Source: Candidatus Aenigmatarchaeota archaeon (lineage in GTDB: Archaea > Thermoplasmatota > Thermoplasmata > Halarchaeoplasmatales > Halarchaeoplasmataceae). Taken from it: 64,000 nucleotides of DNA. Every line of letters begins with the position of its first letter. The first letter of the stretch is position 1. The notes beneath the pieces were generated by a model. That model saw only the letters and a list, made by a program, of their open reading frames with translations, made no database searches and was not told where the DNA came from. The stretch spans positions 1,249 through 65,248 of the forward strand of contig JBKHKA010000007.1 of NCBI GenBank assembly GCA_046537845.1, in the 5' to 3' direction. This document shows, in pieces, positions 21,043-46,018 of the stretch. A program made the translations under genes and the position numbers.

Positions 21043-21149
21043 CCGAGAGACATCTACAGGGAAGTATAAATATTTTGGACTTGGACATTTAATTTCATTG
21101 GAAAACATTTAATACGATGAGTTCCCTTCTATCTTCTAGGTAGAAATAT

Positions 21150-26500: not shown

Positions 26501-26539
26501 AGATCTATTCAGTCTACGGGCAGATGGACTGCTCAACCC

Positions 26540-27364: not shown

Positions 27365-27517
27365 GATGTTTACCTTTTTGTTAAAGGAGAAAGTTCTTTA
27401 CTTTTAAGTTTTCGCACCTCCATCAATGGTTTTGAGTCATTTTGACCCCGACTTTGTGAGAAAGATTTATATTCAAAATCCTTTTTTATATGAGTGCGAG
27501 TTAGAGAGCAGAAATGT

Positions 27518-28006: not shown

Positions 28007-28527
28007 GACTTTTGGTCAGATCAAATAAGGGTCAATCGAGTCTTTTAGACGCATTGATATTTTTCAGCATCGCATTGATCGCTTCCGCGATCTTGATCTT
28101 CGCACCATTCCCTGGAAGCTCTCCGGAAACGAAGGAAGTGATGAGACTTTACGGTGAGAGTACTCTCGATTCTTACCTTCACTCGACTCTCAACCACACC
28201 TCCTACGAATACCAAAATGAAACGATCCATCTCGACGATAGAACGGTATCTGAATTGGTGGTGGAGAACCTATATCTGAGAGATAACACAGATGTGAATA
28301 ATGGCAGTTTGAGAGAGGGTATAGAGAGAGATCTCAATGAAACATTAGATGCTCTGGTCATATCACAATATGATTACAATTTTACCGCCTGGTCTTCTGA
28401 AAACGCTTCTTTCGGGTACGGCCAACAGACCAAAGGTGTGGATGAGATGAACTCCTTTTCACAAGATTTACACACACCGGATCAAAACGCGACCTATACT
28501 GCGAACCTCAAGATCTGGCTGGCGTGA
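28003..28527 (+). CDS. Small pilin-like protein (174 aa) with a class III signal-peptide-like N-terminus
   Basis: MRLLVRSNKG|QSSLLDALIFFSIALIASAILIFA has a basic leader, a G-Q junction and a hydrophobic helix. Its ATG overlaps the upstream stop as ATGA. Confidence 0.7.
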   Translation: MRLLVRSNKGQSSLLDALIFFSIALIASAILIFAPFPGSSPETKEVMRLYGESTLDSYLHSTLNHTSYEYQNETIHLDDRTVSELVVENLYLRDNTDVNNGSLREGIERDLNETLDALVISQYDYNFTAWSSENASFGYGQQTKGVDEMNSFSQDLHTPDQNATYTANLKIWLA

Positions 28528-31600: not shown

Positions 31601-32889
31601 TAGATTATAAGATGACTAGGAGTTATTTCGGCCTCGATGAAGACGAAACTGTACAATCGGATAGACCCCTGAAAGAAGATGCTATATACATATCTCGACC
31701 TATGATGAACCTTTCCCGGGCCCAGAGTGATGTTCTTTCAAGGTCGACAAATACCATGGACTCGCTCCGCGGACATATCAGAGGGTATCCTCATTCTGTC
31801 CTTCCTTCAGTGTATAATACCAGTTCCGATCTGACACTGCTGATGAGCACTATAGATGATGTGTATTATGAGAACTACAACGATACCGACTATTTCCAAT
31901 TCATGGACGATCAGGAGCAGATAATCAGCAGAGAAAGCGAAGACAAGAGTGTCTTTGAATACCCATACATGGGCTATTCCTTGGATTACGACTTGGAAGA
32001 TGACCCGTTGAAGCCTAATTACCGATGCAACCGGACGGATATCTCCTTTGAGTTGGCTGACCAGGAATTCAGCTTCGAAGCTCAGCGTTGGGGAAGTATG
32101 GACTTAAAAGTAGATGTGGATCCATCCCGAGATGAAAGATTGGTGATAAAGGCATACAAGAACACAACGGACGATAATTTCACCCTTGAGACGAGCTATC
32201 CTCCCAAACGCCTCTCAGCCGATGAAATGAGTTTATACGATGTAGAATCTAGATTTTTCTCAGACATAACTCTGCCAGCTCTGGGGCACAACTACTCAGT
32301 GGACGTAGGTATCCAAGCAAGAGAAGGTGACCTTCCCGCTGATATCGAGGGATGGTTCGAAAAGGCGGTAGAAGGAAAAAATGATTCCTACGACGGTTTG
32401 GTCCGTTTCAGTAAGGACCTACTCAAGCAGATGCATGAAGATCCTGAGGTCTTCGAAGAGACGGAGATAGAAGATATAGGTATCTACTTCCACGTGAATC
32501 GTAGTATAGATCGAGATGAAGATATGGAAAAGCGTTTCATATATTGGACCAACCGTACCTCCGGCCAAGAAATAATCCGATACTCTAGACTCCTCATCAA
32601 CGACATGAGATCTATAGGAAGAAAGTTAGGTGAAGAATATCCCGCTCCGTCCCTTTACAGACGTGCTGATAAAGACATGATGAGCAATTATTCCTTTGAA
32701 GCAGTAGAAGTAAGGTCTGATGGTAACTACTCTAAAGGAAATCTAGCCTGGTGGGCCTCTGCAGAACCTTCCATAGGTGTGGGGCGGAAAGGGGAATACT
32801 TCAAGGCGGAACTCGGAAGAGCTGTCTTCGAGCACGAAGAAAAATACGGGATAAAAAGATATCAGAAGTACGGGTCGTTTGGGAATTAG
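28618..32889 (+). CDS. Giant (1423 aa) acidic surface protein with a prepilin-like N-terminus; paralog of 667-6075
   Basis: TTG start 8 nt after an agagg box. N-terminus TRRRLDDRGKIPFALVGVVLIILSTTAFAMI. Shares NLALLLEAARLY with the 1802-aa protein. Many N-x-S/T sequons and one CWSCPEC motif. No catalytic motif recognised. Confidence 0.8.
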   Translation: MTRRRLDDRGKIPFALVGVVLIILSTTAFAMIGQVERSDRDVSVYDPNRQTSEAAEEARNDLAKRAHHLVLQEIHESTKERDPDMSSLQTNVEESFEGYINATYPSKASNSIVYIDDWSLQIVSDARSTPETKDHFHSQGESVEPFQASSLYEGDHRNRTQYGDERAPLYGRVMGELDMSVYSEGSGHTVNYTKRFHENVYSPVFYLKGRFREFKSESRDPFGEVGKLIRYQLSTITQTRTLFGNASGGYGENEGDIESLLSKEDVEIAVNLALLLEAARLYGDYDREIAEEMGVDSELEDYADNGTIDSADVYIMHRNVNNQEVDAGKVLAQAIYPYGEDFVLDLYELFWGGEIVDPTLSEPVVDWDAMEDKGEDWAEEQVRTWLEVYREWLDIPEQLDSQQASATIETMEGSMSPYEWECYSTDPPHPVGGRYYVFSRGPYDYSSGTWNMEAEEVPDTIDLILGDPDNQDMDPEPYVLNFDSDFSNVGSRSIEYYLVEESLIAKHDQGRNTPYYDTLEYILKTINRSIRQRSENVDGEEEKGFMDTVSHNMAETIGTKGFDYEIDPEDNRSVLTNGTDFMIQNDDGAIQEGLKEFEDEAQDFNKRDDWWSEGAYKREYEDDFLYHLTSESVDLWYEAVVNLYDGGVERQDNPTGSVSLSTPDEEQRSDGESSEGTFAFRQDAMEDVNERVRDIAVPRRDSFKDGGWQTTIAPPCWSCPECQNYRNNIIPGDAQATWTDQAIWDRLWNNIQDATEQVVGEQGLISQNQISQQLKEDMDETTDTGEYEGERSGEGNFYDFVLENVAVRTIGEQGERENMLLNLSQSEGWLQHKFQERTLRDIQRNTYVNQEEVFLATNLTQPRYNWRVNRTYDRERQRILNESYEVEFSNYLSEDGDLSIEIDYPEEGQHFVDVQDRYAEEPELRTNMSWSSFQTAIEVSIKGNLDVNTTTDRRNTPIGVHKPTWYNGTLELDYNYTLPLHTAQPLESGWRTGDIDYKMTRSYFGLDEDETVQSDRPLKEDAIYISRPMMNLSRAQSDVLSRSTNTMDSLRGHIRGYPHSVLPSVYNTSSDLTLLMSTIDDVYYENYNDTDYFQFMDDQEQIISRESEDKSVFEYPYMGYSLDYDLEDDPLKPNYRCNRTDISFELADQEFSFEAQRWGSMDLKVDVDPSRDERLVIKAYKNTTDDNFTLETSYPPKRLSADEMSLYDVESRFFSDITLPALGHNYSVDVGIQAREGDLPADIEGWFEKAVEGKNDSYDGLVRFSKDLLKQMHEDPEVFEETEIEDIGIYFHVNRSIDRDEDMEKRFIYWTNRTSGQEIIRYSRLLINDMRSIGRKLGEEYPAPSLYRRADKDMMSNYSFEAVEVRSDGNYSKGNLAWWASAEPSIGVGRKGEYFKAELGRAVFEHEEKYGIKRYQKYGSFGN

Positions 32890-32914: not shown

Positions 32915-35900
32915 TTACTCTTCTTCATCCAGGTCGGCACCGCAGGCCCAACACTTATCCGCCCCGGGTTCTAGTTTATTATTGCAGACAGGACATTTTA
33001 TTTTCTCTTTCTCTTCAACTTCACCCTCAGTTTTTTCTTCAGACCCCGGCTGCTCTTCTTGGTCAAGTCCTGACCCTTTGTGGCTCCATATGCCTCCCGA
33101 GGAAACCTTATCAGACTCGGATTCTTCTTCCAGCATCTTCGTCACTTCATCCTCTAATTCCTCTTCACCTTCGCTCTCTTCATCATCCAATGCTGGGCCA
33201 ACGGGTTCAGATCCCACTTCTGATCCCGTGAAAGAGCTATCTGGTTTCTCCGTGGTGACGCCTTCTTCACTGAAAGATCTTACTTCCGCATAATCTCTTC
33301 CGCATCCTAGACACTCTCCTTCGACCATGAGACAATCGTTGTGGTAAGCATTTCCACACTGGCATTCTAAGCTGCTCTCGGGATCTATCGGGCTGTTGCA
33401 GATATCACAGTCTTTTGATGGCTTAGGCCGTGATTTGGAGGAATATATACCCATACCAGCAGCACCAGCCCTAGCCGCTCCGCTCTCACCCATATAGTTC
33501 CCGTCTTGAGGCCTAGGCGGTGAAGACCTTGATGAAGATGCCCTAGACGTAGAGACTCTAGTCGGTCTAGTCGATCTCTTTTTCTTTAGTGATTTCAATT
33601 TTTCGCCTTTTTTCTGCCTGATCTTGGAAAATTTCGATTCTTTAACCGGAAGCAGTTTTTCTTGTTCCTCCCGTCGCCTTTTCCAGTAAACGAATAACCC
33701 TATCAATATAACTGCGATAGGTATCGGGAGGAGATACCACCAATTTATCCCAACGGGGCCAACTTTGGTTTCTGACTGGTATTCGTTACCGGCGGCATCT
33801 TCTACAACGATCTGGTAATCCACATCACTGAATCCCACATCATCCCCTGATATAGTCGCCTTATACTCCCCACCGGCTCTTTTCATCTCCTTTTCTTTCC
33901 AACCGTCATCCTCTTCATATCTGAGGATAACTCTCTCTACGGAGCTCGCTCCACTGTCTATAGAAGCTGTCACGGTCATCTCGTTTTTCCAAACCGTATC
34001 CGAGGTGTCAAAGTCTTTCAAAGAGGGTGTGGTCAGATCTATCTTCAGCCACTCTGTTTTTCCTTCTTCGTTCAGGTTTCCCGCATTATCAAGTGCTCTT
34101 ACACCAAGATAGAACTGGCCTTCTCTATCGATCATAAAACTCCCTTGATATTCCTCCCAATCTCTATCTTCGCCCAATCTATACTGCAGTATCCTTACTC
34201 CTGATCCCCCTTCATCGTCAGCATATATCTTCACCTCGGGAGGAGCGTTATACCACCCGTTGCTATCGGGCTCGGAGATTTCGTATTTGATCTCAGGCTC
34301 CTGTGTATCTACTTTAATCTGAGATGTGTCGGCATTTTCTTCATCTGAGCTTTTCAGACCTGCATTGTTCTCGGCTAGATATTCTACGGTGTGTTCGCCG
34401 TTCTCAAGTTTTATCTCCACCACGTCAGATTCGGCTTTTTGCCATTCACCTGTTTCATCATCACTGATTATCCTGTACTTTATCGAAGACACTCCCGAGT
34501 TACCGTCCTCCGCGCTTATGTTGACCGCTGGCTCCTCTATATGCCAATCGTTTTCCCCCCCTGGGTTTGGAGAATTGAGTTCTACAGATGGAGCTGTTTT
34601 ATCAATCCTTATCACCTGGAGTTTTTCTTCTTCCACATTCCCTGCGGTGTCTACAGCCCTGTAATACAGACTGTTCTCCCCCTCTTCTCCTATGGTTATG
34701 CTTCCACCGTCACCCTCTATTTCCTCCCATCCCTCGCCTACTCGATATTCTATATGATCTACTCCTGAATAGCCGTCTTCAGAACTAAAGCTCACCTCTA
34801 CATCCCCTATGTACCAGCCATCTTCTCCCTCGGGGCCGTCCAAAGCCACATGAGTAGTGGGTTCGATAACATCTATCTTGAAGCTTTCATCATTTATATC
34901 TTCTTGATTTCCTCCATTATCTATGGAATAGAACTGAACCTCGTGGGTTCCGGAACCTGAAACAGTGGTACCGCCGCTGGCACCATCGATCTCCTGCCAC
35001 TCCCCATCGTCTATCTTGTACAATATACTGTCGACTCCTGAATGGGCGTCCTCCGCACTGAACTGTAGCTCGACATCGCTCCTGTACCAACCGTTCTGAG
35101 GACCCTCGCCTTGTAATGTAAGGGAAGTATCCGGCGGATCTTTATCTATGGTAAAGGAGTATTGATTGGATTTCTCTTCGTTCCCAGCCACGTCTACCGC
35201 ATATATGTAATACTCCACCTCGCTGCCTGCGTCCTGATCAGGGATATCACCGCTGTACTCGTCACCAGTTGTAGAATTCATTGGGCTGGCCTGCCAAACA
35301 CCTCCGTCGACCCTATACCTCACCTCGAGTGAATTCTCGTCGACCCCGCTGTGCTGGTCGGTTATCCTCGCCGTGATCGTATATGGGCCATAACCTTCCC
35401 ACCCTTCGACAGGATCGTGTTCTATCTCGGGAGAATATGTATCCTCCATGTATTCCACATTGACCTCGCTCAAAGAGGGCGTGATCTGCCCGTTCGATGT
35501 TTCAAAGGTGGCTCTGTACTGTATGTATCTGTCCACTGGACTCGGCACCTCACCACCGTTCGAGGCCTCTGCCCAATCTGACCAGCTGTTACCGTCGGGA
35601 GATGTCCTGGTCTCCATAGTGAGTGAAGTACCTGAAGGTTCATCCGCATCCCAGTGGATGGTACCCCAATCATACATCCCATCTCCGGTATCATAAACGC
35701 TTGATACTAAGGTTCCAGAATCCTCGTGGGTTTCGACTATCGCCTCCATGGTCGTTATCACATCGTCATCCGCCCAATCCATAGTTTGCGGACTCGTTGT
35801 GATCTCCCCATTATAATAGTATTGACCATTTTCTCCAGTGAAACCTACGGTGCTCAGATCTCCCAGTGTATATTGACCCAACTTGTCACCTCCCTGTACA

Positions 35901-36451
35901 GGGATGGGGAGTTGATCACTACTAGTATCCCAAGTCTTGATGGTCCAAGATTCTGGATCAAAGGTTTCAGTTTCAGCTGAAAAATATTCATCTTGGTTAC
36001 CTGTTGGGCGTAATATCTTGAGCTTGAAAGCAGAATGGCGGTCGGCACAGGTAACCGTGAATTCGATTATCTCACCACCTCGGTCGATATTGAAATCATC
36101 TCGACCTGGAAAAGTAGTATATCCAGGATCCCAATAATAATCGTCGTTAGGCGACTCCGCCGCTCCCACCTGAAACTCATACGTATCCAGCATCACTTCG
36201 CCTGAAGAAGTTGTGGTATCCAAATTTGTTAAGTCACCGGATTCAAAATCGGACTGTGTAGTCTGGGTCCATGTTTCCGTGGATAAGGGTTTCCGAGGTT
36301 TCTCAGCTGTTGGGGATACATTGATAGTTGAATTCTCCTGAGGAGTCGAAGCCGAGGAGGGCATGGACATAAAAACGACTAACCCTACAGAAGTCAATAA
36401 GATACCTATGGTTAGGATTATCAAGGATTTTTCGAACGATTTATTTTTCAT
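32915..36451 (-). CDS. Single-pass receptor/adhesin-like protein (1178 aa): signal peptide, N-terminal globular domain, six Ig-like repeats, TM helix, cytoplasmic C4HC3 zinc finger, acidic linker, terminal zinc ribbon
   Basis: Signal MKNKSFEKSLIILTIGILLTSVGLVVF. Repeats follow the consensus D-x-x-x-P...GWY...D-x-x-SGV...Y-R...W...AGN. TM helix WWYLLPIPIAVILIGLFVYW followed by KRRREEQE. Finger CDIC-x11-CQC-x4-H-x2-C-x6-CLGC. C-terminus CPVCNNKLEPGADKCWACGADLDEEE. Confidence 0.85.
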   Translation of the reverse strand: MKNKSFEKSLIILTIGILLTSVGLVVFMSMPSSASTPQENSTINVSPTAEKPRKPLSTETWTQTTQSDFESGDLTNLDTTTSSGEVMLDTYEFQVGAAESPNDDYYWDPGYTTFPGRDDFNIDRGGEIIEFTVTCADRHSAFKLKILRPTGNQDEYFSAETETFDPESWTIKTWDTSSDQLPIPVQGGDKLGQYTLGDLSTVGFTGENGQYYYNGEITTSPQTMDWADDDVITTMEAIVETHEDSGTLVSSVYDTGDGMYDWGTIHWDADEPSGTSLTMETRTSPDGNSWSDWAEASNGGEVPSPVDRYIQYRATFETSNGQITPSLSEVNVEYMEDTYSPEIEHDPVEGWEGYGPYTITARITDQHSGVDENSLEVRYRVDGGVWQASPMNSTTGDEYSGDIPDQDAGSEVEYYIYAVDVAGNEEKSNQYSFTIDKDPPDTSLTLQGEGPQNGWYRSDVELQFSAEDAHSGVDSILYKIDDGEWQEIDGASGGTTVSGSGTHEVQFYSIDNGGNQEDINDESFKIDVIEPTTHVALDGPEGEDGWYIGDVEVSFSSEDGYSGVDHIEYRVGEGWEEIEGDGGSITIGEEGENSLYYRAVDTAGNVEEEKLQVIRIDKTAPSVELNSPNPGGENDWHIEEPAVNISAEDGNSGVSSIKYRIISDDETGEWQKAESDVVEIKLENGEHTVEYLAENNAGLKSSDEENADTSQIKVDTQEPEIKYEISEPDSNGWYNAPPEVKIYADDEGGSGVRILQYRLGEDRDWEEYQGSFMIDREGQFYLGVRALDNAGNLNEEGKTEWLKIDLTTPSLKDFDTSDTVWKNEMTVTASIDSGASSVERVILRYEEDDGWKEKEMKRAGGEYKATISGDDVGFSDVDYQIVVEDAAGNEYQSETKVGPVGINWWYLLPIPIAVILIGLFVYWKRRREEQEKLLPVKESKFSKIRQKKGEKLKSLKKKRSTRPTRVSTSRASSSRSSPPRPQDGNYMGESGAARAGAAGMGIYSSKSRPKPSKDCDICNSPIDPESSLECQCGNAYHNDCLMVEGECLGCGRDYAEVRSFSEEGVTTEKPDSSFTGSEVGSEPVGPALDDEESEGEEELEDEVTKMLEEESESDKVSSGGIWSHKGSGLDQEEQPGSEEKTEGEVEEKEKIKCPVCNNKLEPGADKCWACGADLDEEE
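33310..33347. repeat. 38-nt block identical to 38234-38271 (zinc-finger coding region of the two paralogs)
   Basis: gacactctccttcgaccatgagacaatcgttgtggtaa is present at both positions, verified base by base. Confidence 0.95.
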
Positions 36452-36567
36452 ACGTCCGACTCCTTCTTTCGAATATATAATTTGTCTACGGTGGTAAATT
36501 ATATATGTGTCTTAGACTATATATGTTTTTTGTCCTTTTCGGGCACTTTTGTAAATCTCTATTCTTT

Positions 36568-37080
36568 TCAATCTTCAAAGATGAAAGTATGATATTGGGT
36601 CTCACCGCTGACTATCAATTCGCACCTCATCACTCTGAAACCCTCTCCTGAGACAAGATCAAGATAACGGTGCTCGTCATCGATCTCCGCAAGCTCCGTT
36701 TCGTTGGTGGTATAATTGATCTGTGATGGATCCCAAAGATGTACCCTTTCACTATCTTCAGCGGTGATATCGGATGATGCGAGTTTACCTTGCGCTTCAA
36801 GACTCACCTCACTAGAACTTATCCTGATCTCATATTCTTCCCCATCTATCTCCGATGGTAGTTCCACAGCGGAAGCGTTCTCCCTGAAGGTGAAATAAAG
36901 TGTAGAATTAGAATGGGTGTTAGAAAGTTCATTCACTCTAGAAGAAATCTCTTGAGAGAGGCTCTTTAACCTAGTTTCATCTATATCCTCTCTTGCAGCT
37001 GAAAAAACGAAGATTGAAAATATCACCAAAGCCATGGTGAAGATAGAGACGATGATTTTTGAAAGTGCCCAATCCAACAT
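36568..37080 (-). CDS. Small N-terminally anchored protein (170 aa); paralog of 6072-6605
   Basis: MLDWALSKIIVSIFTMALVIFSIFVF helix. Shared blocks with the 177-aa protein are listed under that feature. Start codon lies 1 nt after the upstream stop. Confidence 0.7.
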   Translation of the reverse strand: MLDWALSKIIVSIFTMALVIFSIFVFSAAREDIDETRLKSLSQEISSRVNELSNTHSNSTLYFTFRENASAVELPSEIDGEEYEIRISSSEVSLEAQGKLASSDITAEDSERVHLWDPSQINYTTNETELAEIDDEHRYLDLVSGEGFRVMRCELIVSGETQYHTFIFED

Positions 37081-37081
37081 C

Positions 37082-37618
37082 TTACCACTCTAATACATCC
37101 AGCTCGACATAGTAATCGTTTTCGACGCCGTCTTCATTCATATCGAAATCCGCGGGCTTTTTAACTATAGATATCCGCTGATTCCCTCCTGGGATTATCA
37201 GGGTATCGTTATCCGGCGAGCACATAGGGATGCCCTTACGACCGTGGGTGACTAATATCGATTTTTCAGGTTCCTCTCTGAGTTGATAATAGATGGCTCT
37301 TGTGTGAACAGAACCGGACAAAGGAGCACCCACCTTTACCTCTTCAGTCTCGGGAGGAAATTCTATTTCTAAAACCGTGCTCGCATTCACACCTTGGATA
37401 TACACGCTCTCCACGGCAGATGCTATCTGATTTACTTCTTGGGAGAGCTGTTCTTCTGCACTGTTAGTGCGGTAGTGAGACAGGGCGGAGAGCATAGACG
37501 GTATAGCTATAGCGAGTACGATAGCTATTATCAAAAGCCGGAAAGGATAATCCATAACTCCTTCTTCGGAGCGTTTCAAGTTCCTTGGATCGCATCTTTT
37601 CTTTTCTATTCCATCCAT
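37082..37618 (-). CDS. Small pilin-like protein (178 aa)
   Basis: Charged leader MDGIEKKRCDPRNLKRSEEG followed by VMDYPFRLLIIAIVLAIAIPSMLSAL and a beta-rich body. Confidence 0.65.
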   Translation of the reverse strand: MDGIEKKRCDPRNLKRSEEGVMDYPFRLLIIAIVLAIAIPSMLSALSHYRTNSAEEQLSQEVNQIASAVESVYIQGVNASTVLEIEFPPETEEVKVGAPLSGSVHTRAIYYQLREEPEKSILVTHGRKGIPMCSPDNDTLIIPGGNQRISIVKKPADFDMNEDGVENDYYVELDVLEW

Positions 37619-37637: not shown

Positions 37638-40600
37638 TTATTCCTCTTCATCCAGGTCAGCACCGCAGGCCCAACACTTGTCTGCCCCTGGTTCTAGGTC
37701 GTTATTACATATCGGGCATTTTGTAGGACCTTTATCTTTATCTTCTTCTTCAGTGGATTCCTCCTCGATCGACTCCTTTTCCTCTTCTGACCTTTCATCT
37801 AAGTTTTCTTCGGGTTCTAGGTCTTCTTTGCCCCCTTCCTCTTCCTGCTCTTCATCTATCTCTTCATCCTTATCCTGTTCCATCTTTTCTTCTTGCTCAC
37901 TGACTTCACTCGGTTCTTCTTCCATGTCCTCAGCTTGCTCATCCTGCTCGACCCCCTCCTCCAACTCTTCTTCATCCTCAATCGTCTCGCTCTCTTCGGA
38001 CTCCATTTCATCTGAGGGTTCCTCTTCTTCTTTAGCTATCTCCTTCATCTCCTCTGCTTCTTTTTTGACTTTTTCTTCGGGCTCAGTACTGGTTTCGTCT
38101 GCTAATATCTTTATATCCGCTCCATCCTCGGTTGTCTCTTCGGTCTCCCCCCTCTCTTCCTCCTCAGTGCCTTCATCAGAACCTCCTTCTTCCGTGAAGG
38201 ATTTAACGGCCGCATAATCTCTTTCACATTCAGGACACTCTCCTTCGACCATGAGACAATCGTTGTGGTAAACGTTCCCGCATTCACATTTCAATCTACT
38301 CTCAGGATCGGTCGGGCTGTTACAGATGTCACAGTCTTCTGAAGACGTCTGTGAAAGAGCCGATACAGGCATCGTTTCCCCTCTAGCCCCTGGTGGAGGG
38401 GTGGAGGATCTACCACCGTTCCCTACGTCTGCCGTTCTTTCGGCTCGTTGACTCTTCAATTCTTTCAATTTCCTCCCTCTTTTCTCCCTGATTTTTGAAA
38501 ATTTAGATTCTTTTATAGGCATCAGTTTTTCGTGTTTTTCTCTGCGCTTTTTCCAGAACACAAAGAGAGCTAAAAGCACCACCGCGATGGGTATCGGTAC
38601 AAAGTACCACCAGTTTATGCCGACATCTGCTACCTTTGTCTCCGTTTCCTCGACATTTCCAGCTCCATCTCTCACCACTATACGATAGTCAACATCGCTG
38701 AAGCCCACTTCGCCGCCGGAGATGGTGGCGACATATTCCCCATTTTCTAAGTTCATCTCTTTTTCTTTCCAACCGTCTCCTGAGTCATATTCTAAGATGA
38801 CTCGATCGATGTCGGAGTTATAATCCTTCGCCTCCACAGAGACGGTGAGATCGTTTCTCCAAACCGTAGGACTCGATTCAGCAGATTCTATCCTGGGTCC
38901 TTCAAGATCCATAAGATATTCAAAATCCTCAATATATTCATTCCCCGCCTCGTCTTTTACGTATAATTCTACCTCTAGTTCACCCGACATGCTCACATCA
39001 AAAGTGGTGTTCATTTTACCGATATCACCTGAATTCTCACGTGTCTCATTCTCCCATTCTCCCCTCCTATTTATCCGACAACTCACTTCACTAACGCCGG
39101 ATAATTCGTCCTCGGAGTCCACAGAAATCGTACCTGGAGAATTTACCCATCCTTGCTCATAAGGTGGATCGGTTTCATAATATAGATCGGGAGAAGAGGT
39201 GTCCACTTTGATCTCTTTTTCATTCACCTCGCTTTCCCTACCAGCCTTATCTACACTGTGATATTCTACTGTATAAATACCGTCTTCAAGAGTTATCGTT
39301 TCCTGGTATTCTGACCATTCTTCCTCCCCATCTATCCTGTAATTGATGTGTGATACTCCAGATATATTATCCTGAGCATTCAATTCAACTTCGGGGGCGG
39401 TGACATACCATCCTTTGTTGCCTTCCTCGCCAAGGACCTCGGCAGATGCTTGAGGATCTTCCAGATCGATCTTGATCTGAGTCGTTCCTCTTTCTTCATT
39501 GCCGGCCCTATCGAAACACCGATACTCTAACTGAAACTCACCAGATTCATCCAGATCGATCTCGCTTTCATATGTACGCCATTCTTCTTCACCAAACCTG
39601 TACTCGATGGTTTCGATATCTGAGTTTTCGTCGGTGGCAGATATCTCTACCTGAACATCTTCAAGATACCATCCGTTCTCACCTGAAGGCTCAGGCTTTA
39701 TCACTTCCACCTCTGGTGGAGACATATCGATCTTCACCTCTACCGAGTCGACTCCCTCCTCGTTCCCGACCTGATCATCAGAATAGTATTCCACCTCGTA
39801 TATGCCAGATTGCTGCAGCTCGATGGGCTGAGCGTACTCTTCCCACCCATCATCGAGTCTGTACCACGTGGTACCCACCCCGGAGTCCCCATCACTTGCA
39901 TCCAATTGAACCTCTACTTGACTCGCAAACCACCCGTCGTCCCCCTCCTCGCCGGATAGCACGGGCTCCGTCTCCGGAGATTCCTTATCCACCTTGAAAG
40001 GATAATATTGATCCTCATCAGGAGATGTTGCCACTAACCCGGCTTCATTTTCCGCCTCGATATAGTACCTGACTTCAGTAGAGTGGTTAAGATCTGGTAT
40101 CTCGGTTTCATATAACTCATCACCTACCTGCCCCATGGTCAGTTCATTCCAGCTGCTGCCCTCATCGATGCTGTAGTAGGTGCTTGGGTTTTCGGCCAAT
40201 CCGCTCCCTCCGTCCTGGACACTCGCGGTGATGGTATAACCTCCCTCGGCCTGCCATTCATCCAAAGAGCTGTGCTCTATATCCGGAGGGTCTTCATCCA
40301 CTCGGTACTCTATACGGATGCTGTTCAAAGAAGGCGTTTCTCTGCCAGTTGCAGACGTGAAGGTCGCTCTGTACTGAATATATTGGTGAGTATCATCACC
40401 CGGGACGTTCCCCTCATTCTCAGCTTCCTCCCAGGATGTCCAATCCTGCCCGTTTGCGGAAGTCCTCGTTTCTATAGTCAGGTTCGATCCTTGAGGCACG
40501 TCGGCATCCCAACTTATGCTCTCCCACTCGTACATGTGCTGTCCCGCATCGTGCACGTTTGATTCATGAACGCCCTCGTCACGATGGGTTTCTACTTCAG

Positions 40601-41384
40601 CCTCCAAAGTGGTTATCGCGTCATCGTCGCTGATATGTCCCATCTCCGTAGGAGTACTAGTTACCTCCCCATCATGACTCCAATAACCATTGTTTCCAGT
40701 CAAAGCAACTGCAGCGATGTCGCCAAGTGCGTAAAGACTCAATCGATCTTCTTTTTCTATAGGTATATCCAGCCCGGTCCGTTCATTTATCTGCCCAGGG
40801 TTCAAGTTTGAAAAGATCTCTGATTGAGCCGCATAAAACTCGGCGCTCTCACCAGGGTTAACAGCATCTGGATCGGTGGGCCTGAGAACTTTCAGCTCTA
40901 TGTCTCCAGCTAGATCTGGGTCATCCCCCACATTTATCCTGAACTCTCTGATCTTGCCTCCTCTATCTGCTCTAAAATCATCCCTACAGCCGAGGAAAGT
41001 TGATCCCTTGGGCCAATAATAATATCCCCCTCTGCTCCCCTGTTCAGCCGCTTCAGCCGCCCCTATCTGGATCGTGTCAGTATCCAACTTTACCTTACCC
41101 GGCTCCGAATCGAGGTCTAGATCTTCGCTGTCCCCCTGTTTGAAGTCGCTCTGCGACCACTGCTCCCAAGAAGCTACGCTTTTGACTCCCTCCTCCTCTC
41201 TTGAGGGGAGATCTTCTTCCCTTGAAAAGAATGTTTTCGCTTCGGAGATACCTCCGTTAGCTAAAAAGGGCCCCCAAAACGAGAGCATCAAAAACACGAC
41301 TATGGCCGTGACAAAAATCAATGTGAATACGAAAGATAGTTCGGAAACAAAGCCGTTTTTCATTTTATCATCCATGGAAGCCAC
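37638..41384 (-). CDS. Single-pass receptor/adhesin-like protein (1248 aa), paralog of 32915-36451, with a longer acidic cytoplasmic linker
   Basis: N-terminal anchor LSFVFTLIFVTAIVVFLMLSFW, six Ig-like repeats, TM helix WWYFVPIPIAVVLLALFVFW (about 38553-38615) then KKRREKHE. Finger CDIC-x11-CEC-x4-H-x2-C-x6-CPEC (38226-38333). An ~160-aa E/D-rich tract. Terminal CPICNNDLEPGADKCWACGADLDEEE. Confidence 0.85.
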   Translation of the reverse strand: MASMDDKMKNGFVSELSFVFTLIFVTAIVVFLMLSFWGPFLANGGISEAKTFFSREEDLPSREEEGVKSVASWEQWSQSDFKQGDSEDLDLDSEPGKVKLDTDTIQIGAAEAAEQGSRGGYYYWPKGSTFLGCRDDFRADRGGKIREFRINVGDDPDLAGDIELKVLRPTDPDAVNPGESAEFYAAQSEIFSNLNPGQINERTGLDIPIEKEDRLSLYALGDIAAVALTGNNGYWSHDGEVTSTPTEMGHISDDDAITTLEAEVETHRDEGVHESNVHDAGQHMYEWESISWDADVPQGSNLTIETRTSANGQDWTSWEEAENEGNVPGDDTHQYIQYRATFTSATGRETPSLNSIRIEYRVDEDPPDIEHSSLDEWQAEGGYTITASVQDGGSGLAENPSTYYSIDEGSSWNELTMGQVGDELYETEIPDLNHSTEVRYYIEAENEAGLVATSPDEDQYYPFKVDKESPETEPVLSGEEGDDGWFASQVEVQLDASDGDSGVGTTWYRLDDGWEEYAQPIELQQSGIYEVEYYSDDQVGNEEGVDSVEVKIDMSPPEVEVIKPEPSGENGWYLEDVQVEISATDENSDIETIEYRFGEEEWRTYESEIDLDESGEFQLEYRCFDRAGNEERGTTQIKIDLEDPQASAEVLGEEGNKGWYVTAPEVELNAQDNISGVSHINYRIDGEEEWSEYQETITLEDGIYTVEYHSVDKAGRESEVNEKEIKVDTSSPDLYYETDPPYEQGWVNSPGTISVDSEDELSGVSEVSCRINRRGEWENETRENSGDIGKMNTTFDVSMSGELEVELYVKDEAGNEYIEDFEYLMDLEGPRIESAESSPTVWRNDLTVSVEAKDYNSDIDRVILEYDSGDGWKEKEMNLENGEYVATISGGEVGFSDVDYRIVVRDGAGNVEETETKVADVGINWWYFVPIPIAVVLLALFVFWKKRREKHEKLMPIKESKFSKIREKRGRKLKELKSQRAERTADVGNGGRSSTPPPGARGETMPVSALSQTSSEDCDICNSPTDPESRLKCECGNVYHNDCLMVEGECPECERDYAAVKSFTEEGGSDEGTEEEERGETEETTEDGADIKILADETSTEPEEKVKKEAEEMKEIAKEEEEPSDEMESEESETIEDEEELEEGVEQDEQAEDMEEEPSEVSEQEEKMEQDKDEEIDEEQEEEGGKEDLEPEENLDERSEEEKESIEEESTEEEDKDKGPTKCPICNNDLEPGADKCWACGADLDEEE
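38234..38271. repeat. 38-nt block identical to 33310-33347
   Basis: Same 38-mer as in the paralog. The 3'-terminal ~85 nt of the two genes (32915-33000 vs 37638-37723) are also about four-fifths identical by eye. Confidence 0.95.
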
Positions 41385-41554
41385 CTTTAGGATACCATCG
41401 GCCTCTCTACATTTACCTTAACAATATAGATAGGGAGGTAAATACTTAAAGATTTTGGGATAATGGGTTTTTAGCTGATAGTGCCTTGCTGCCACCTATT
41501 TTCCCTGATATAAAAAATAAAGGGAAAAGAGGTCCCTGTTCTGTCAATAGCACT

Positions 41555-42109
41555 TTAAGGTCTTTCGACCCATATGCTCGTTTGGACTGATTCGGTTCCG
41601 ATCAGACCTTCGTAGGAGGCCTCGATCTCTATCTTGGCGTGGTCCTCGTTTTGGCGCAGTCTGCAACCGTCTAAATCTAATTCCGCCTGACCTGTAGAGT
41701 TCGTCGTAGCAACTGCGCTAGCTCCGGCACCTTCTGCCTCTACGTCAACACCGGCCATCACATTACCGTCTTCATCATATATCGTTACAACCAAATATTC
41801 GTCGTATTCCTTCTCCGGTGGCAAGGTGTTGTCCGAATCATCCGGGTCGGGCCGTTCAGATCCCTTGTAATATGCTCTTCCATCTTCGTATAATTCCTCA
41901 CAGATCACACTTTCATGGGTTTCGTTAGTACCGTGTTGAACCTCGTGCACTCTGACGTCGTCTATCTTCGGCTCCGTTGTCACCATGAATCCCAGTATCG
42001 CCGCTAGGGAGACCGCCGCTATTATCACTATCAGCAGTATGTAGAGAGGTATGCCCATGATCTGGGCGTATTCGTCATCCTCTATTCTTCGGGGGGGTAG
42101 CGAGTCCAT
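41555..42109 (-). CDS. Small pilin-like protein (184 aa) with a beta-sandwich-like C-terminal domain
   Basis: Leader MDSLPPRRIEDDEYAQIMG, helix IPLYILLIVIIAAVSLAAILGFMV, and a C-terminal VVTIYDEDGNVMAGVDVEAEG...TTNSTGQAELDL resembling a CarboxypepD_reg-like fold. Confidence 0.65.
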   Translation of the reverse strand: MDSLPPRRIEDDEYAQIMGIPLYILLIVIIAAVSLAAILGFMVTTEPKIDDVRVHEVQHGTNETHESVICEELYEDGRAYYKGSERPDPDDSDNTLPPEKEYDEYLVVTIYDEDGNVMAGVDVEAEGAGASAVATTNSTGQAELDLDGCRLRQNEDHAKIEIEASYEGLIGTESVQTSIWVERP

Positions 42110-42171
42110 TTTTTCTTACCTCATTATTATCCAATACGGTCAAACAATATATATTTTGCTGTGTATCTCTC

Positions 42172-44196
42172 CTACACCATCCCGCCCAATAAGGACTCAG
42201 TAAATAACAGCGAAATAGTGTAAAGCAGCATAGAGACAGGGAGGATCCTCACCACGTTCATCTTCCGACTGGCCCAATCCTCCCCGCTCTCGATACCGAC
42301 CGTGAAATAAACCGTCAGGAGAACGAGGGTTATGAGGTAGATCCCCACGACCATGGAAAATGTGAAACCCGCTATGGGTACCTCTTCACCTATTATACGA
42401 CCGGCCATCCCGGCCAACGGCCCCTCCAATTCGATCTGAGCGAAATAATTCGAAAGTATTACGTAAAGGACCGCGGTCACCCCCATGACAAGGGGAGCGA
42501 TGAATTGGGCGGTGACTTTCATCATCCCTGTTATCTCCGTCAACCTGCTCTTCATCTCCTCTTCGATGTTCTGAAGTTCGGTCAGGTATCCAGATATCCT
42601 CACCAAAGTATCTCCTGCGGTCTCCGGATCTTTTTTTATCGCCCTAGATATCATGGTAGTTGTAGCTTTGATCATCTGTGAGGGATTCTTTTCCAGAACT
42701 CCTCCTCTACCGAATAACACATCTGAAAGCGATTTCCTCGTGACATGTAGTGAATAAGAGATCTTCTCGAAAAGGACACTGATACTGGAGGAATGTATAC
42801 TCTCAGAAACTTTTTCGAAGGCCCTTTCCGGCGGGTCTCCTCTACTTATATATCCTCCAAGATGAAAGAGGGCGTTCGGAAAGTTGTTCTCCATCTCCAA
42901 TATGTTATCTCTCTGCTTATAAGGGAAGTACGATGTGAAGAAGCAGTATATGGTTATGGCCGCCGCGATGCCCCACAAGGGGAGCAGTGATATCAGATAA
43001 GAGTGATCGGGTCTCAAGTAAAATCCCAAGAAGACCAGAGTGCCCCCTACTCCCAGCGAAGCCCCTATAACGGCATATTTTTCGCGGTCCGTTAGAAGAT
43101 CGGAAAGTGAGAGAGGTGCTCTCATGGTCGGGCGGTATCCCAATATGTGGATCGAATATATCAAAAATCCGAGAGGTATCACCACGTTTAGAACGAAAAT
43201 TATGAGTTCAGCAGCAGTTTCTCCGATCGCCAATACAGGTAAAAGAGCGGCCAACAACAGCGGCAGGATACTCCCCAAAGAAAAGAGGCTCATCGCTGGG
43301 ACGGTCAAAGATTCCGCAAAATTCCTCATCTTATTCTCGGTACCTTTCACGGCTATATCGTTGGCTTTTTCCAAGCTCGCAGTGACTTCCTCCTGCGTCT
43401 CTTTATGGGCTGCGTTCCGCAGCGTGTATAAACTCCTTCTGAACTCTTCACTCCACTTCCCCCATTCATCGGCGAAGGCTATCAGGGAGTCTTCGATCTT
43501 TGTGTGTTTCCTCATCTCTACGTCCCATATTATCCTTCTTAATTCAGAGGACAGAGGTTCTTCGACGCTGTCGGCGGCATACTCTATCGCCCTTGACAGA
43601 TTGGGAGTCAAGGACATAGCCATTACCATGTAATTGATGGCCTCAGGCATGCGCCCTATCGATTTGGCTCTTCTCCTCTTAGCCATATAGTTCGGTATAT
43701 TCATGACCAAAGCGATAGCAAGGATGGGCAAGATTATGACAGGCATCAGGGTGGTCAATTTGAACAGGAAGGGTATGTCCGTGAAAAAGAGGGTGTAAAG
43801 AGAAGCTACCAAGGATATCAAGAAAACTATCATACCCACGAAGTAAGCAAGATATCTGACTTCGAAGGGTTCTGCGTCTATCTGGGCGAACTTTATCGAG
43901 CTCTTGAACTCATCCTTTTCAAGCTTTTCTTTTTCTATCTCGTGGTCTCTTAATGCGAGTTCATAACGCTGTTTCGCCCTTTTAAATATTGGACTACCAG
44001 GAGGATGTTTCTTTCGGATCTCTTTGAACTTCTCCTTTTCCTCCTCAAACTTCCGATCGAGTTCTTTGTCTTTCTCTTTGCGCCTCTCCTGTCTTTCCTG
44101 CCTCTTCTCAGATAGGTCCAATTGAAAAAGGGCGCTCGCAAATTTGCAACCTTTCGTGAAATAACCTTGGCTTTGTGTTTGATCCATCGAAGGCAT
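42172..44196 (-). CDS. Type IV pilus/archaellum-type polytopic platform protein (FlaJ/TadC, T2SS-F family) (674 aa)
   Basis: An N-terminal K/E-rich cytoplasmic segment followed by about 8-9 TM helices arranged as two repeats with cytoplasmic helical bundles. Lies immediately downstream (1 nt) of the ATPase gene. Confidence 0.75.
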   Translation of the reverse strand: MPSMDQTQSQGYFTKGCKFASALFQLDLSEKRQERQERRKEKDKELDRKFEEEKEKFKEIRKKHPPGSPIFKRAKQRYELALRDHEIEKEKLEKDEFKSSIKFAQIDAEPFEVRYLAYFVGMIVFLISLVASLYTLFFTDIPFLFKLTTLMPVIILPILAIALVMNIPNYMAKRRRAKSIGRMPEAINYMVMAMSLTPNLSRAIEYAADSVEEPLSSELRRIIWDVEMRKHTKIEDSLIAFADEWGKWSEEFRRSLYTLRNAAHKETQEEVTASLEKANDIAVKGTENKMRNFAESLTVPAMSLFSLGSILPLLLAALLPVLAIGETAAELIIFVLNVVIPLGFLIYSIHILGYRPTMRAPLSLSDLLTDREKYAVIGASLGVGGTLVFLGFYLRPDHSYLISLLPLWGIAAAITIYCFFTSYFPYKQRDNILEMENNFPNALFHLGGYISRGDPPERAFEKVSESIHSSSISVLFEKISYSLHVTRKSLSDVLFGRGGVLEKNPSQMIKATTTMISRAIKKDPETAGDTLVRISGYLTELQNIEEEMKSRLTEITGMMKVTAQFIAPLVMGVTAVLYVILSNYFAQIELEGPLAGMAGRIIGEEVPIAGFTFSMVVGIYLITLVLLTVYFTVGIESGEDWASRKMNVVRILPVSMLLYTISLLFTESLLGGMV

Positions 44197-44197
44197 T

Positions 44198-46018
44198 TCA
44201 GAAACTCTCCTGGAACCATCTTTCCCAATCTTCTACAAGCTTATCGTAATCCACTGAACCATACTCTTCCAATTGCCATTCCAACATGTGCCAAAATTTG
44301 GTGTTGTATTCAGGCACATAGTCGGCTTCCAACAGTTCCAATCTGCCCTCTTCCCGGGCCCTCTCCACCACAGCGGATTTCACAAGTGCCCTAGCACGGA
44401 TGTTTTCTTCCGCCTCTTCCATCGACATATCCCAATCGTCCGCTATTTTGGTCAGCAGCTCTGAAGACTCTCCAAAGTAGTCTGTCTTTTCCAATGTGTC
44501 ATTTTCGGGAGAGTACAGCATCAGATCGTTGAACAGATCATCACCTCTATCCAAACCTATATCTGCATCTACAGTGGAGGGTACGGCATCTTTTCTCACC
44601 TCGGATATCTGGGTCGTTTTTCTCACCAGCCGGTGTAATCCTTTAGGCCGTCTGTAGTTCACCATTATCACCCCGTCGGTAGCTGCGAAAGATTTCGGGG
44701 GTATATTCAAGTCGTAAACAACTCTTTCGTAAACCGCCTTCGGAGAATCCGCATGGATGGTGCCCATGACGGCACTGCCCGCTGTACCTGCTCTCATAGC
44801 TTCGTACAAAGTCCTAGCTTCTTCACCTCTGACCTCACCCATGACTATGGCCGATTCACCTAACCTCAATGACACGCGCAGCGATTCTTCGGCCGACATC
44901 TCGCCGAGGCCGCCGATTCCGCTGGATTGGACATGCATGGACTGGACTTTGTAACCTTCCTCCTTGAGGGACGAACAAGGCAATTCTAACGTATCCTCTA
45001 TGGTAACGATCCGTTGACTCGGAGGGAATTCAAACATCAAGGCCGCCGCAAGTGACGTCTTACCGGCACTCCTTGGACCCGCGACCAATAAAGTCGCATT
45101 GCCGTCGATCAAGAAGGACAGGAGACCGGCAGATAGGGGTGAAATACTTCCCTGATATATCAATCTCAAAAGTGTCCATGGATTCGGAGAGTGCCTCCTG
45201 AAAGTTATCGAGACCCCTTCAGGCGAGAGAGGTTCGCCTATCACCGTAGCCCTGGTTTTGTACTCCGGAAGACTGCATTCGAGAACCGGTCTAGCCTCGG
45301 AGAACGCTCTGCCGCTCTCATACTGCAGCCTCGATATGATCGAGTCAGCACTGTCTTTTGTCAGAGTTATGTTAGTTACACATTTAGATGGTAGAGATTT
45401 ATCCAGGCCGGTAGAAGAGATTATAGTATATATCTGGCTTTCTTCTACAGGTGCATCTATGTAAACGTCCGTGGTCCTGGTATCTCTCAATAATATCTCG
45501 ACTATCCCAAGACCGACGGTGTATCTTGAAAGGATATTCGATAACATCCTGACCCTCGCCAATTCCTCTGAACGGGTGCGTCCCAGATTGACTCCTTCGA
45601 TGTTCGCGTACTTGTATATCAATCTGTGGCCTTGTTTCTTTGCGTATTCCCTGATGAAAGTGGGCCGATGACCTTTTTCTTTCCCTGGATAATGGTCCAG
45701 TATCTCCTCTCGTGCGAGGGTTATTATTTTTTTCTGGCCGGGCGGCAGAGTGTACTCAAGGGGTTCCACGTGGTAGAGTGTTTCAGTTTCTCCCGGCAGC
45801 CTGTAGAGGGTGATCCGGGTTTCTTCTACCAAATATTCTTTTACCTTCTGGGCACCCGGGGGAGGATTGAGAACAATCCAGGAAGAAGAGAATTTGGGTT
45901 TGACCCGCTGGTACGACTCGAATATGCTGCTGAATTTTCTCTTTAGATCGTGATCGACTTTGCTTTTCACCAGCGATCCTCTATCTGATATCGGGCCGGT
46001 TTCTGCTTCCATTTTCAT
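44198..46018 (-). CDS. Type II/IV secretion-family ATPase (FlaI/PilB/VirB11-like) (606 aa)
   Basis: Walker A LVAGPRSAGKTS, Asp box IVTIEDTLEL, Walker B AIVMGEVRGEEA and His box GTIHADS, plus a long N-terminal domain. Confidence 0.88.
   Translation of the reverse strand: MKMEAETGPISDRGSLVKSKVDHDLKRKFSSIFESYQRVKPKFSSSWIVLNPPPGAQKVKEYLVEETRITLYRLPGETETLYHVEPLEYTLPPGQKKIITLAREEILDHYPGKEKGHRPTFIREYAKKQGHRLIYKYANIEGVNLGRTRSEELARVRMLSNILSRYTVGLGIVEILLRDTRTTDVYIDAPVEESQIYTIISSTGLDKSLPSKCVTNITLTKDSADSIISRLQYESGRAFSEARPVLECSLPEYKTRATVIGEPLSPEGVSITFRRHSPNPWTLLRLIYQGSISPLSAGLLSFLIDGNATLLVAGPRSAGKTSLAAALMFEFPPSQRIVTIEDTLELPCSSLKEEGYKVQSMHVQSSGIGGLGEMSAEESLRVSLRLGESAIVMGEVRGEEARTLYEAMRAGTAGSAVMGTIHADSPKAVYERVVYDLNIPPKSFAATDGVIMVNYRRPKGLHRLVRKTTQISEVRKDAVPSTVDADIGLDRGDDLFNDLMLYSPENDTLEKTDYFGESSELLTKIADDWDMSMEEAEENIRARALVKSAVVERAREEGRLELLEADYVPEYNTKFWHMLEWQLEEYGSVDYDKLVEDWERWFQESF

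Follow-up and report, generated by a model that had tools for sequence, protein, structure and literature searches.

Two surface proteins with diverged ectodomains and a shared zinc-finger tail in a type IV filament locus of a Thermoplasmata archaeon

Introduction

In eukaryotes, the PA-TM-RING and other transmembrane RING E3 ligases (RNF43/ZNRF3, GRAIL) are built from a signal peptide, a binding ectodomain, a single transmembrane (TM) helix and a cytosolic RING-type finger. Here we analyze a pair of archaeal genes whose products follow a comparable layout. They lie in a 64,000-nt stretch of DNA (contig JBKHKA010000007.1 of assembly GCA_046537845.1, deposited as Candidatus Aenigmatarchaeota archaeon and placed in the Thermoplasmata), which as a whole is called the window below. 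The source is a member of Ca. Natronoplasma (Thermoplasmata, Ca. Halarchaeoplasmatales). Gene A (32915..36451, minus strand), the feature studied here, is an open reading frame (ORF) with an ATG start that encodes a single-pass surface protein of 1178 aa, and it represents a lineage-specific extra paralog. Gene B (37638..41375, minus strand), the paralog at the ancestral position, encodes 1245 aa from an ATG. All parts of A and B described below are on the same strand as the genes.

Prokaryotic RINGs of C4HC3 configuration have been described (PMC11354881). Accessory proteins of archaeal type IV filaments are poorly understood. Among them are metal-binding proteins, which the passages on filament loci in Makarova et al. 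2016 (PMC4858521) and in bioRxiv 10.64898/2026.04.22.720090 list as arCOG07264, with an N-terminal Zn ribbon, and arCOG06883, with a double Zn ribbon.

An earlier note on this DNA had seen in gene A a second copy of a receptor-like protein, with a variable ectodomain set on an invariant cytoplasmic module. As judged from the alignments reported here, A and B have fixed different ectodomains and have common membrane-proximal, TM and zinc modules, which are kept alike by purifying selection and, in this genome, also by short-tract gene conversion. We tentatively read the two proteins as alternative-specificity binding or adhesion subunits, or anchors, of a filament cassette, which would share a cytoplasmic docking module.

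Results

Colinearity and topology of A and B

The description of gene A as a second copy with the same domain order was borne out, since A and B are colinear and could be aligned end to end with MAFFT at 45% identity. The longest ORF of gene B (37638..41384, minus strand) begins with a GTG and encodes 1248 aa. The 1245-aa product starts at codon 4 of this ORF, an ATG that is conserved as the start in related genomes and is also the one called by NCBI. Identical or near-identical copies of the A product in metagenome-assembled genomes (MAGs) of Ca. Natronoplasma sp. are named 'OmpL47-type beta-barrel domain-containing protein' by NCBI, and orthologs of A are present at the same position in two other Thermoplasmata MAGs (64% and 61% identity). 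Gene A shows no sign of decay: an intact gene was found in each of three species-level lineages and in three strains, and its orthologs give an overall ratio of nonsynonymous to synonymous divergence (dN/dS) of ~0.1. Decay of one copy was rejected, as both A and B are intact in all lineages carrying them.

The topology of A was deduced from hydropathy and the positive-inside rule. An N-terminal hydrophobic segment is followed by ~870 very acidic residues, a TM helix at aa 902-923 with KRRRE directly after it, and the last 255 aa. The KRRRE sequence together with the hydropathy places the 870-aa middle of the protein outside the cell and the last 255 aa inside, as in a type-I single-pass protein.

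Pattern of divergence between A and B

To compare the regions of the pair, dN and dS were calculated for each of them by the Nei-Gojobori method. Divergence is not uniform along the proteins, as the earlier note had expected: dN is 0.06 in the terminal ribbon, 0.10 in the finger, 0.17 in the TM helix and 0.20 in the juxtamembrane segment, and it reaches 0.47-0.80 in the folded ectodomain units and 0.93 in the serine/proline-rich (S/P-rich) segment. Because dS is saturated almost everywhere (proportion of synonymous differences, pS, 0.58-0.98), dN/dS per domain is not computable for the A/B pair. It can be seen that invariance does not extend over the entire cytoplasmic part. Constraint is strong on the TM, juxtamembrane, finger and ribbon regions, whereas nowhere in the protein is evolution faster than in the S/P-rich segment and the acidic linker.

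The ectodomains were then compared between types. Head identity is 69-88% among orthologs of each type (74-88% for A) and 46-51% between types (46% for the A/B pair). Columns were counted as fixed differences when three A orthologs agree, three B orthologs agree and the types differ. Such columns account for 14% of the positions in the head and 9-12% of those in the other ectodomain units, as against 2% in the TM/juxtamembrane and finger regions. In the fixed columns of the head, outgroups side equally with A and B, 15 times each. On these alignments, the pattern in the head fits two maintained specificities, both copies having moved. The idea of variable ectodomains with alternative specificities thus holds for the A- and B-type fixed differences of the ectodomain, but the type-specific conservation lies in the N-terminal head, and the Ig (immunoglobulin)/OmpL47 repeats drift in orthologs too (~60%). 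Compared with B1Sed10_20, the ectodomain of B shows 49% identity and its small neighbours 72-81%, which means that the surface proteins evolve much faster than their partners.

The hypervariability of the ectodomain that might have been expected in a population was not seen in three or four near-identical strains. These are only 2-6 substitutions apart, with 6 of the 11 distinct substitutions in the acidic linker, and on this ground population hypervariability or a diversity-generating mechanism was rejected.

As a separate observation, the head of the A ortholog at L001 gives a dS of 0.72 when compared with the head of A (35444-36277), with the rest of the gene saturated (pS 0.66-0.9), and ectodomain and tail trees give different species groupings. 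The low dS of the head and the discordant trees suggest intragenic recombination between lineages.

Probable short-tract gene conversion in the tail

The last 26 residues, which the earlier note had called nearly identical, differ at two positions between A and B (24/26 match). This near-identity of the tail is probably, to judge from the codons, in part the product of short-tract gene conversion on top of purifying selection. A probable conversion tract shared with B lies at 33308..33349 in gene A; within these codons there is a 38-nt perfect match, which is the longest exact run in the whole A/B codon alignment (11 identical codons in a row, permutation P = 0.017). After it comes a run of 20 nt in the ribbon, where a 14-nt run is also found. 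At identical degenerate residues the two genes use the same codon in 70% of cases in the finger (23/33), 58% in the ribbon and 36% in the ectodomain, and the finger value differs from that found elsewhere (181/452; Fisher P = 0.0009). Four orthologous sequences differ at silent sites of the tract, and the A/B pairs of sister genomes are without such a run. The A/B identity of the finger is 77% in this genome and 55-57% in two sister genomes. In addition, A falls outside B, L014 and P0005 in a tree of the ectodomain, and groups with B in a tree of the region from TM to finger. The dS between A and B is ~1.1 in the finger and ~1.6 in the ribbon. The former value indicates that the conversion is not recent, and a recent conversion of the whole tail was rejected on the tail dS of 1.1-1.6.

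A simple possibility is that the conserved tail is a mere by-product of gene conversion between neighbours, so that no shared partner is implied and A is a redundant duplicate. This would account for the 38-nt tract, the raised synonymous identity in finger and ribbon, the residues common to A and B in this genome only, and a within-genome finger identity that is higher here than in the two sister genomes. However, with the dS values given above the conversion must be old or short, and the finger, the juxtamembrane motif and the ribbon are conserved in all 10-11 members of the family, including those from single-copy genomes without conversion. Moreover, the type-specific conservation of the ectodomain in three lineages indicates that A is not redundant. 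Therefore, it seems improbable that conversion by itself explains the tail, and conservation for a common docking function is preferred.

The cytoplasmic tail: finger, linker and ribbon

An AlphaFold2 (AF2) model of the tail consists of two juxtamembrane helices, a disordered S/P-rich stretch, a folded finger, a disordered acidic linker with a short helix, and a folded ribbon. The finger (aa 1013-1056, 33284..33415, core 33302-33409) is recognised by its motif as a RING-like binuclear zinc finger of C4HC3 type and is modelled with a predicted local distance difference test score (pLDDT) of 82-89. The finger spacing was confirmed to be the same in A and B, C-x2-C-x11-C-x-C-x4-H-x2-C-x6-C-x2-C. 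Its eight zinc ligands (C1015, C1018, C1030, C1032, H1037, C1040, C1047 and C1050), as required for a cross-brace, are invariant in all 10-11 family members, and a scan of all six reading frames of the window gave this motif and the CPxCNN..CWAC ribbon in A and B only. The relative P0043 scores 23.5 bits on Prok-RING_1 (PF14446), and the remoter finger proteins P0044 (50.9), P0046 (40.1) and P0048 (34.6) pass its cutoff; finger proteins retrieved by the family profile score 35-51 bits on Prok-RING_1 and zf-RING_2. When the tail model was searched with Foldseek, RING E3 domains made up 40 of the 50 matches listed and took the first ten places; they superpose at 1.6-3.0 A over 40-51 columns, but the E-values are weak (at least 0.046), as a result of the small size of the domain. 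A search of PDB sequences with the finger gave non-significant AN1, RING and PHD matches only.

The finger might also be catalytic. By analogy with the PA-TM-RING proteins, A could be a transmembrane RING E3-like enzyme, in which an ectodomain ligand would control a finger that directs a SAMP-type or true ubiquitin (Ub) modifier onto cytoplasmic targets. The predicted fold matches RING E3 domains crystallised with E2 enzymes, the C4HC3 cross-brace keeps the Ile after Cys1, paralog B in addition keeps the Pro after Cys7, and relatives score on zf-RING_2 and Prok-RING_1, all of which speak for such an enzyme. In the same direction, Prok-RING families are reportedly linked to Ub-like gene neighbourhoods. 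On the other hand, the last loop of the finger has only 6 residues, the Foldseek E-values reach only 0.05, and scanning ORFs of the 64-kb window and of related loci brought up none for an E1, an E2, a Ub-like protein or a JAB protein. Euryarchaeal SAMP systems are not known to use E2/E3, which also counts against an enzyme of this kind. We regard it as an improbable explanation, and take a non-catalytic docking role of the finger as the better one.

The acidic disordered linker (aa 1057-1150, 33002..33283) is modelled with a pLDDT below 50, apart from one helix (tail residues 172-192). As the earlier note had said, it is shorter in A: the segment between finger and ribbon is 102 aa in A and 169 aa in B, a difference of ~67 aa (~60 in that note). 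The linker of A holds a short motif, L-E-x-E-V-T-K-M-L-E-E-E (aa 1099-1110, 33122-33157), which is predicted to be a helix and recurs in the A orthologs, P0005 and P0043; its consensus L-E-x-E-V-x-x-M-L-E-x-E is kept amid the fast-evolving linker. In its place, B-type linkers hold DIKILAD(E/K)TSTE..EKVKKEAEEMKE. The conserved linker motifs of both types look, from their sequences, like docking motifs.

The tail ends in a probable zinc ribbon, CPVCNNKLEPGADKCWACGADLDEEE (aa 1151-1178, 32918..33001), which is recognised by its CxxC pattern and modelled at pLDDT 85-87. The form common to A and B is CP[VI]CNN[KD]LEPGADKCWACGADLDEEE. The pattern CxxC-x(10-14)-CxxC is invariant; A remains below the cutoff of Zn_Ribbon_1 (PF13240; 16.6 bits vs 25), and the equivalent ribbon is at cutoff in P0043 (Zn_Ribbon_1, 25.6 vs 25) and P0006 (DUF7577, PF24463, 28.0 vs 28). 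The tail architecture is plastic, as the B orthologs of sister genomes have two or three zinc ribbons and that of B1Sed10_20 has two. The extra ribbons were seen at L001 3-404, L002 4962-8804 and L014 9974-13699 as a CxxC..CPSC element directly behind the finger and another ribbon at the end of the tail; the B of the window is without them.

The ectodomain and membrane anchor of A

The N-terminus of A (aa 1-35, 36347..36451; MKNKSFEKS-LIILTIGILLTSVGLVVFMSM-PSSAS) is a putative signal peptide or signal anchor, with a hydrophobic stretch at aa 7-25 after Lys residues. Neither the class III (pilin) motif [KR]-G nor the wider cleavage motif [KR]-[GA] was found in this N-terminus, MKNKSFEKSLIIL...PSSAS. 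A pilin identity was rejected for A and B, because there is no class III signal and A has a C-terminal TM helix with a 250-aa tail.

The distal head (aa 59-336, 35444..36277) is modelled by AF2 as all-beta, with strands only, in two beta-sandwich subdomains (pLDDT 67). It gave no Pfam match and, when its profile was searched against PDB sequences, no match either. Foldseek with this model returned weak jelly-roll, carbohydrate-binding module (CBM), lectin-like and phage-baseplate matches with TM-scores of at most 0.29, which carry no functional weight. The second subdomain, marked by a RYIQYR motif, is a mobile module that is also found in P0041 and P0113 in unrelated contexts. A word-index search with the head retrieved one partial relative, and one with the segment from TM to finger gave no match, A itself included, which we take as a limit of that method for sub-sequences.

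The head is followed by a first Ig-like domain (aa 337-437, 35141..35443), which scores above cutoff on two Pfam models, Big_13 (39 bits) and Big_3_2 (29 bits), with the best stretches at aa 359-437; the matching region of B shows a weak DUF7743 match. Four OmpL47-type beta-barrel/Ig-like repeats (aa 438-806, 34034..35140) form a stalk-like part. On the NCBIfam model NF047446 (cutoff 40) A scores 189.2 bits over 4 stretches and B 183.8 bits; A stays under the Leptospira OmpL47 equivalog NF047441 (145.8 bits vs a cutoff of 250). These repeats are the fastest-evolving folded part (38% identity between paralogs, ~60% between orthologs), and distant database matches of A cover them only. By comparison, the membrane-proximal Ig-like domain (aa 807-900, 33752..34033) is the most conserved unit of the ectodomain, with 53% A/B identity, and is DUF7743-like in the relative P0006 (26.7 bits vs a cutoff of 27).

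The TM helix (GINWWYLLPIPIAVILIGLFVYW) and the basic juxtamembrane helices (KRRREEQEKLLPVKESKFSKIRQKKGEKLKSLKKKR) occupy aa 901-960 (33572..33751), according to hydropathy, the positive-inside rule and the AF2 helices. In this region R927, E928, P935, K937, S939, K951 and L952 are invariant in 10 family members.

The filament locus and the distribution of the family

Genes A and B stand in a cluster with the order ATPase, platform protein, 184-aa pilin-like protein, B, 178-aa protein, 170-aa protein and A, on which a trio with a DUF7286 protein converges. The upstream filament core (41555..46018) consists of the ATPase (44198-46018, minus strand; Pfam T2SSE, 58.7 bits), the platform protein (42172-44196, minus strand; T2SSF, 24.2 bits, just under the cutoff of 25.2) and the 184-aa pilin-like protein (41555-42109, minus strand). 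The NCBIfam matches to TadA/FlaI/VirB11-like models in this core are all below cutoff. Between B and A lie two small pilin-like genes (36568..37618, minus strand) for proteins of 178 aa (DUF7311-like) and 170 aa (DUF7266-like), which have weak Pfam matches and N-terminal hydrophobic helices. The convergent trio, on the plus strand, is made up of two small class III-type proteins recognised by their N-terminal motifs (27494-28006 and 27997-28527) and a 1423-aa protein with Pfam DUF7286 on its N-terminus (28618-32889), whose gene ends 25 nt from gene A. The N-termini in the trio are DDRG-VVGF, NKG-QSSLLDAL and DDRG-KIPFALVGVV, and class III-type motifs are present in the neighbours p170b, p176 and the DUF7286 protein.

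The arrangement B, 178-aa, 170-aa, A also occurs in the MAGs NA-30cm_bin.11 and T1Sed10_113R1. B1Sed10_20 has the B-position copy only, in the same setting: the cyanophycin synthetase and S51 peptidase genes border the locus on one side, and the genes of the ATPase and the platform protein on the other. Besides B1Sed10_20, the three loci of P0005, P0042 and P0043 show a single copy, then two small genes, with a convergent DUF7286 trio. Overall, the single-copy relatives in L014, L003, L006/L007 and L011 occupy the B position with the two small genes next. Single-copy loci at the B position with identical flanks indicate that gene A is an addition to an older six-gene cassette. From this synteny, A is a lineage-specific extra copy, added downstream of B in the ancestor of the three sampled lineages. 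The ancestral cassette, on the same comparison, is one B-position protein, two small pilin-like proteins and the convergent trio of two small pilin-like proteins and a giant DUF7286 protein. The ATPase/platform order of the window is the same in L002 and L014, and DUF7286/pilin-like partners are kept with the family in L001, L003, L006/L007 and L014, the cassette being found in 7 of 9 loci. The 178- and 170-aa proteins are 72-81% identical across four genomes, far above A or B.

The family is small. Among 185,579 species genomes 9 family loci were found, all in Thermoplasmata except one repeat-only bacterial match. A profile of TM, juxtamembrane segment and finger, searched against 1.84 billion representatives, retrieved six clusters with the whole module and ~70 further proteins with the finger only. 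Many of the latter are large proteins that combine FG-GAP, LamG, PKD, Big_7 or NosD domains with a finger close to the C-terminus, which makes an adhesion-type ectodomain with a cytoplasmic RING-like finger a recurrent architecture. In P0041 the TM/juxtamembrane/finger/ribbon tail is the same, but the ectodomain is unrelated and consists of InlB B-repeats.

These data also bear on a serious rival, in which A is a general structural protein of the cell envelope (S-layer-like or glycocalyx), anchored by its TM helix, whose tail would tie the envelope to cytoplasmic structures; its place beside filament genes would then be incidental or serve the passage of the filament through the envelope. The large acidic Ig-repeat ectodomain with its C-terminal TM anchor and 4 N-glycosylation sequons is in keeping with such a role, as is the fact that P0006 and P0041 stand alone. 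Two literature statements count on the same side: a passage in PMC12448462 has Thermoplasmatales without a paracrystalline S-layer, and one in bioRxiv 10.64898/2026.04.22.720090 proposes that Ig-fold, S-layer-like proteins of filament loci prime the envelope. In contrast, the family is very rare and restricted, evolves far faster than its neighbours (40-49% vs 72-81% identity to B1Sed10_20) and co-occurs tightly with the DUF7286/pilin-like cassette, and known S-layer proteins do not have a 250-aa tail that contains two conserved zinc modules. On balance, a general envelope role seems unlikely, and an accessory role in the filament cassette is preferred.

Candidate promoters of A and B

Gene A is preceded by a 116-nt spacer (36452..36567, minus strand) of 32% GC with the TATA-like runs ATATATAATTTAC and TTATATATT, just as the earlier note had described. 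The first of these (36494-36506, minus strand), an exact 13-mer that is unique in the window, lies 43-55 nt before the ATG of A, and a Shine-Dalgarno sequence AAGGAG (36461-36466, minus strand) lies within the block AAGGAGTCGRACGT-ATG. Both the ATATATAATTTAC and the AAGGAGTCGRACGT-ATG blocks are identical in the three genomes with gene A, whereas the other spacer sequence varies. The spacing would fit an archaeal TATA box with a start site ~20 nt upstream of A and a leader that bears the Shine-Dalgarno sequence. A promoter of its own, as claimed for gene A earlier, is supported by this conservation footprint. No oligo-T terminator was found between the 170-aa gene and A, so that read-through from the B unit is also possible.

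Upstream of B, three genomes, of which B1Sed10_20 is the more distant one, have an identical promoter-like element, TCCCAAAATCTTTAAGTATT (41441..41460, minus strand). Before this element stands a conserved, terminator-like hairpin with a T-run (41511-41537), which ends the unit upstream of B. A scan for sigma-70 promoters gave 15 sites against 13 expected, and this bacterial model is uninformative for an archaeon.

Other genes in the window

A cyanophycin synthetase-like gene (23804-27364; Cyanophycin_syn N-domain, ATP-grasp and Mur ligase) adjoins an S51 (cyanophycinase-family) peptidase, and in L001 and L014 the pair likewise lies in synteny with the filament locus. To our knowledge, this gene pair is uncommon in archaea. 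At 667-6204 (minus strand) an acidic ORF of 1845 aa without Pfam match begins with DDERA-VMVFVLIGIVILL, like the class III-type start of the DUF7286 protein, and may encode a second giant pilin-like protein. Ribosomal protein S3Ae (18535-19452, minus strand) carries a C-terminal helix-hairpin-helix extension (HHH_5) in a single ORF. A class II aminoacyl-tRNA synthetase with a tRNA_bind_4 N-domain is encoded at 19513-21108 (minus strand), an architecture that we take to be that of methanogen-type seryl-tRNA synthetase.

Discussion

The above results are, in our opinion, best accommodated, although tentatively, if A and B are binding or adhesion subunits of alternative specificity, or anchors, in a filament cassette. 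The heads of A and B would recognise different surface ligands, while both proteins would be held in the membrane beside the filament machinery. The RING-like finger and the ribbon may act as non-catalytic protein-protein docking modules for one shared cytoplasmic partner, for which the cytoplasmic part of the filament ATPase/platform complex is the most plausible candidate. A might act alone, or it might form a heteromer with B by way of the conserved segment made up of the membrane-proximal Ig, TM and juxtamembrane parts.

Several observations weigh against this proposal. Neither sequence searches nor Foldseek gave a recognisable ligand-binding fold in the head, and no ligand, partner or signalling output could be identified from the sequence of A. 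The finger of A scores 16.8 bits on Prok-RING_1, under the cutoff of 29.1. P0006 and P0041 stand away from filament genes, and the loci L003, L006 and L011 have no ATPase adjacent to the family gene; the filament link could thus involve the DUF7286/pilin-like cassette only, or be looser. Because of the extra ribbons in B orthologs, the tails of A and B in sister genomes may not be functionally equivalent. Finally, the tree discordance is modest, with 58-94% bootstrap on short alignments.

A more far-reaching interpretation is that A and B are transmembrane signal transducers outside Asgard, whose alternative heads signal via the RING finger, either catalytically (E3-like, with SAMP/Ub-like modifiers) or allosterically on the filament ATPase. 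We hold this to be highly improbable. If true, eukaryotic receptor-type RING ligases would have in these proteins a prokaryotic forerunner or analogue, and the proteins would belong to a wider archaeal class, as yet undescribed, of adhesion-domain proteins (FG-GAP, LamG, PKD, NosD) with RING tails. That wider set raises the question of what a RING finger does in archaea without a canonical ubiquitin system. If A is merely a duplicated adhesin, the pair is a case of ordinary paralog subfunctionalisation with local gene conversion. If the docking proposal is right, A and B make up a natural experiment with two heads, one tail and one machine, in which surface recognition would be coupled to the filament apparatus in S-layer-less, extremely halophilic Thermoplasmata.

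Compared with known systems, the finger is closest to Prok-RING_1 (PF14446), with which it has in common a C4HC3 binuclear cross-brace of ~40 residues and a predicted fold that superposes, with weak E-values, on RING domains; a profile of the family's finger also leads to multi-finger proteins above the cutoffs of Prok-RING_1 and zf-RING_2. It differs in that A and B score below the Pfam cutoff and have the finger in a cytoplasmic tail behind an ectodomain of 870 aa, and in that their genes belong to a type IV filament cassette, where no Ub-like neighbourhood was seen. With Leptospira OmpL47, the likeness lies in four repeats of A that match the domain model NF047446 strongly. These repeats form the stalk only, and the head, TM helix, finger and ribbon of A are without counterpart in OmpL47. 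The PA-TM-RING ligases have the same layout logic as A and B, which is an analogy of architecture and not membership. There is no ectodomain homology between them; A and B have a C4HC3 finger with a short last loop instead of RING-H2, an extra terminal zinc ribbon and an archaeal host, and an E2 was not found among the ORFs scanned.

Among the accessory proteins of archaeal type IV filaments, those of Ig-fold, S-layer-like or PilY-like kind and the Zn-ribbon membrane proteins come nearest to A and B. The relevant passages of Makarova et al. 2016 (PMC4858521) and bioRxiv 10.64898/2026.04.22.720090 support a likeness at the level of the locus, since a large Ig-repeat surface protein is encoded with an ATPase, a platform protein and class III signal peptide proteins. 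The metal-binding accessory proteins arCOG07264 and arCOG06883 resemble A and B by their description in these passages. Searched by term, the two texts returned no passage on a surface protein that has a C-terminal anchor and, in the cytoplasm, a RING-like finger and a ribbon. Taken together, this comparison indicates that known kinds are combined in A and B, namely a finger of Prok-RING type and OmpL47 repeats in a putative accessory protein of the filament.

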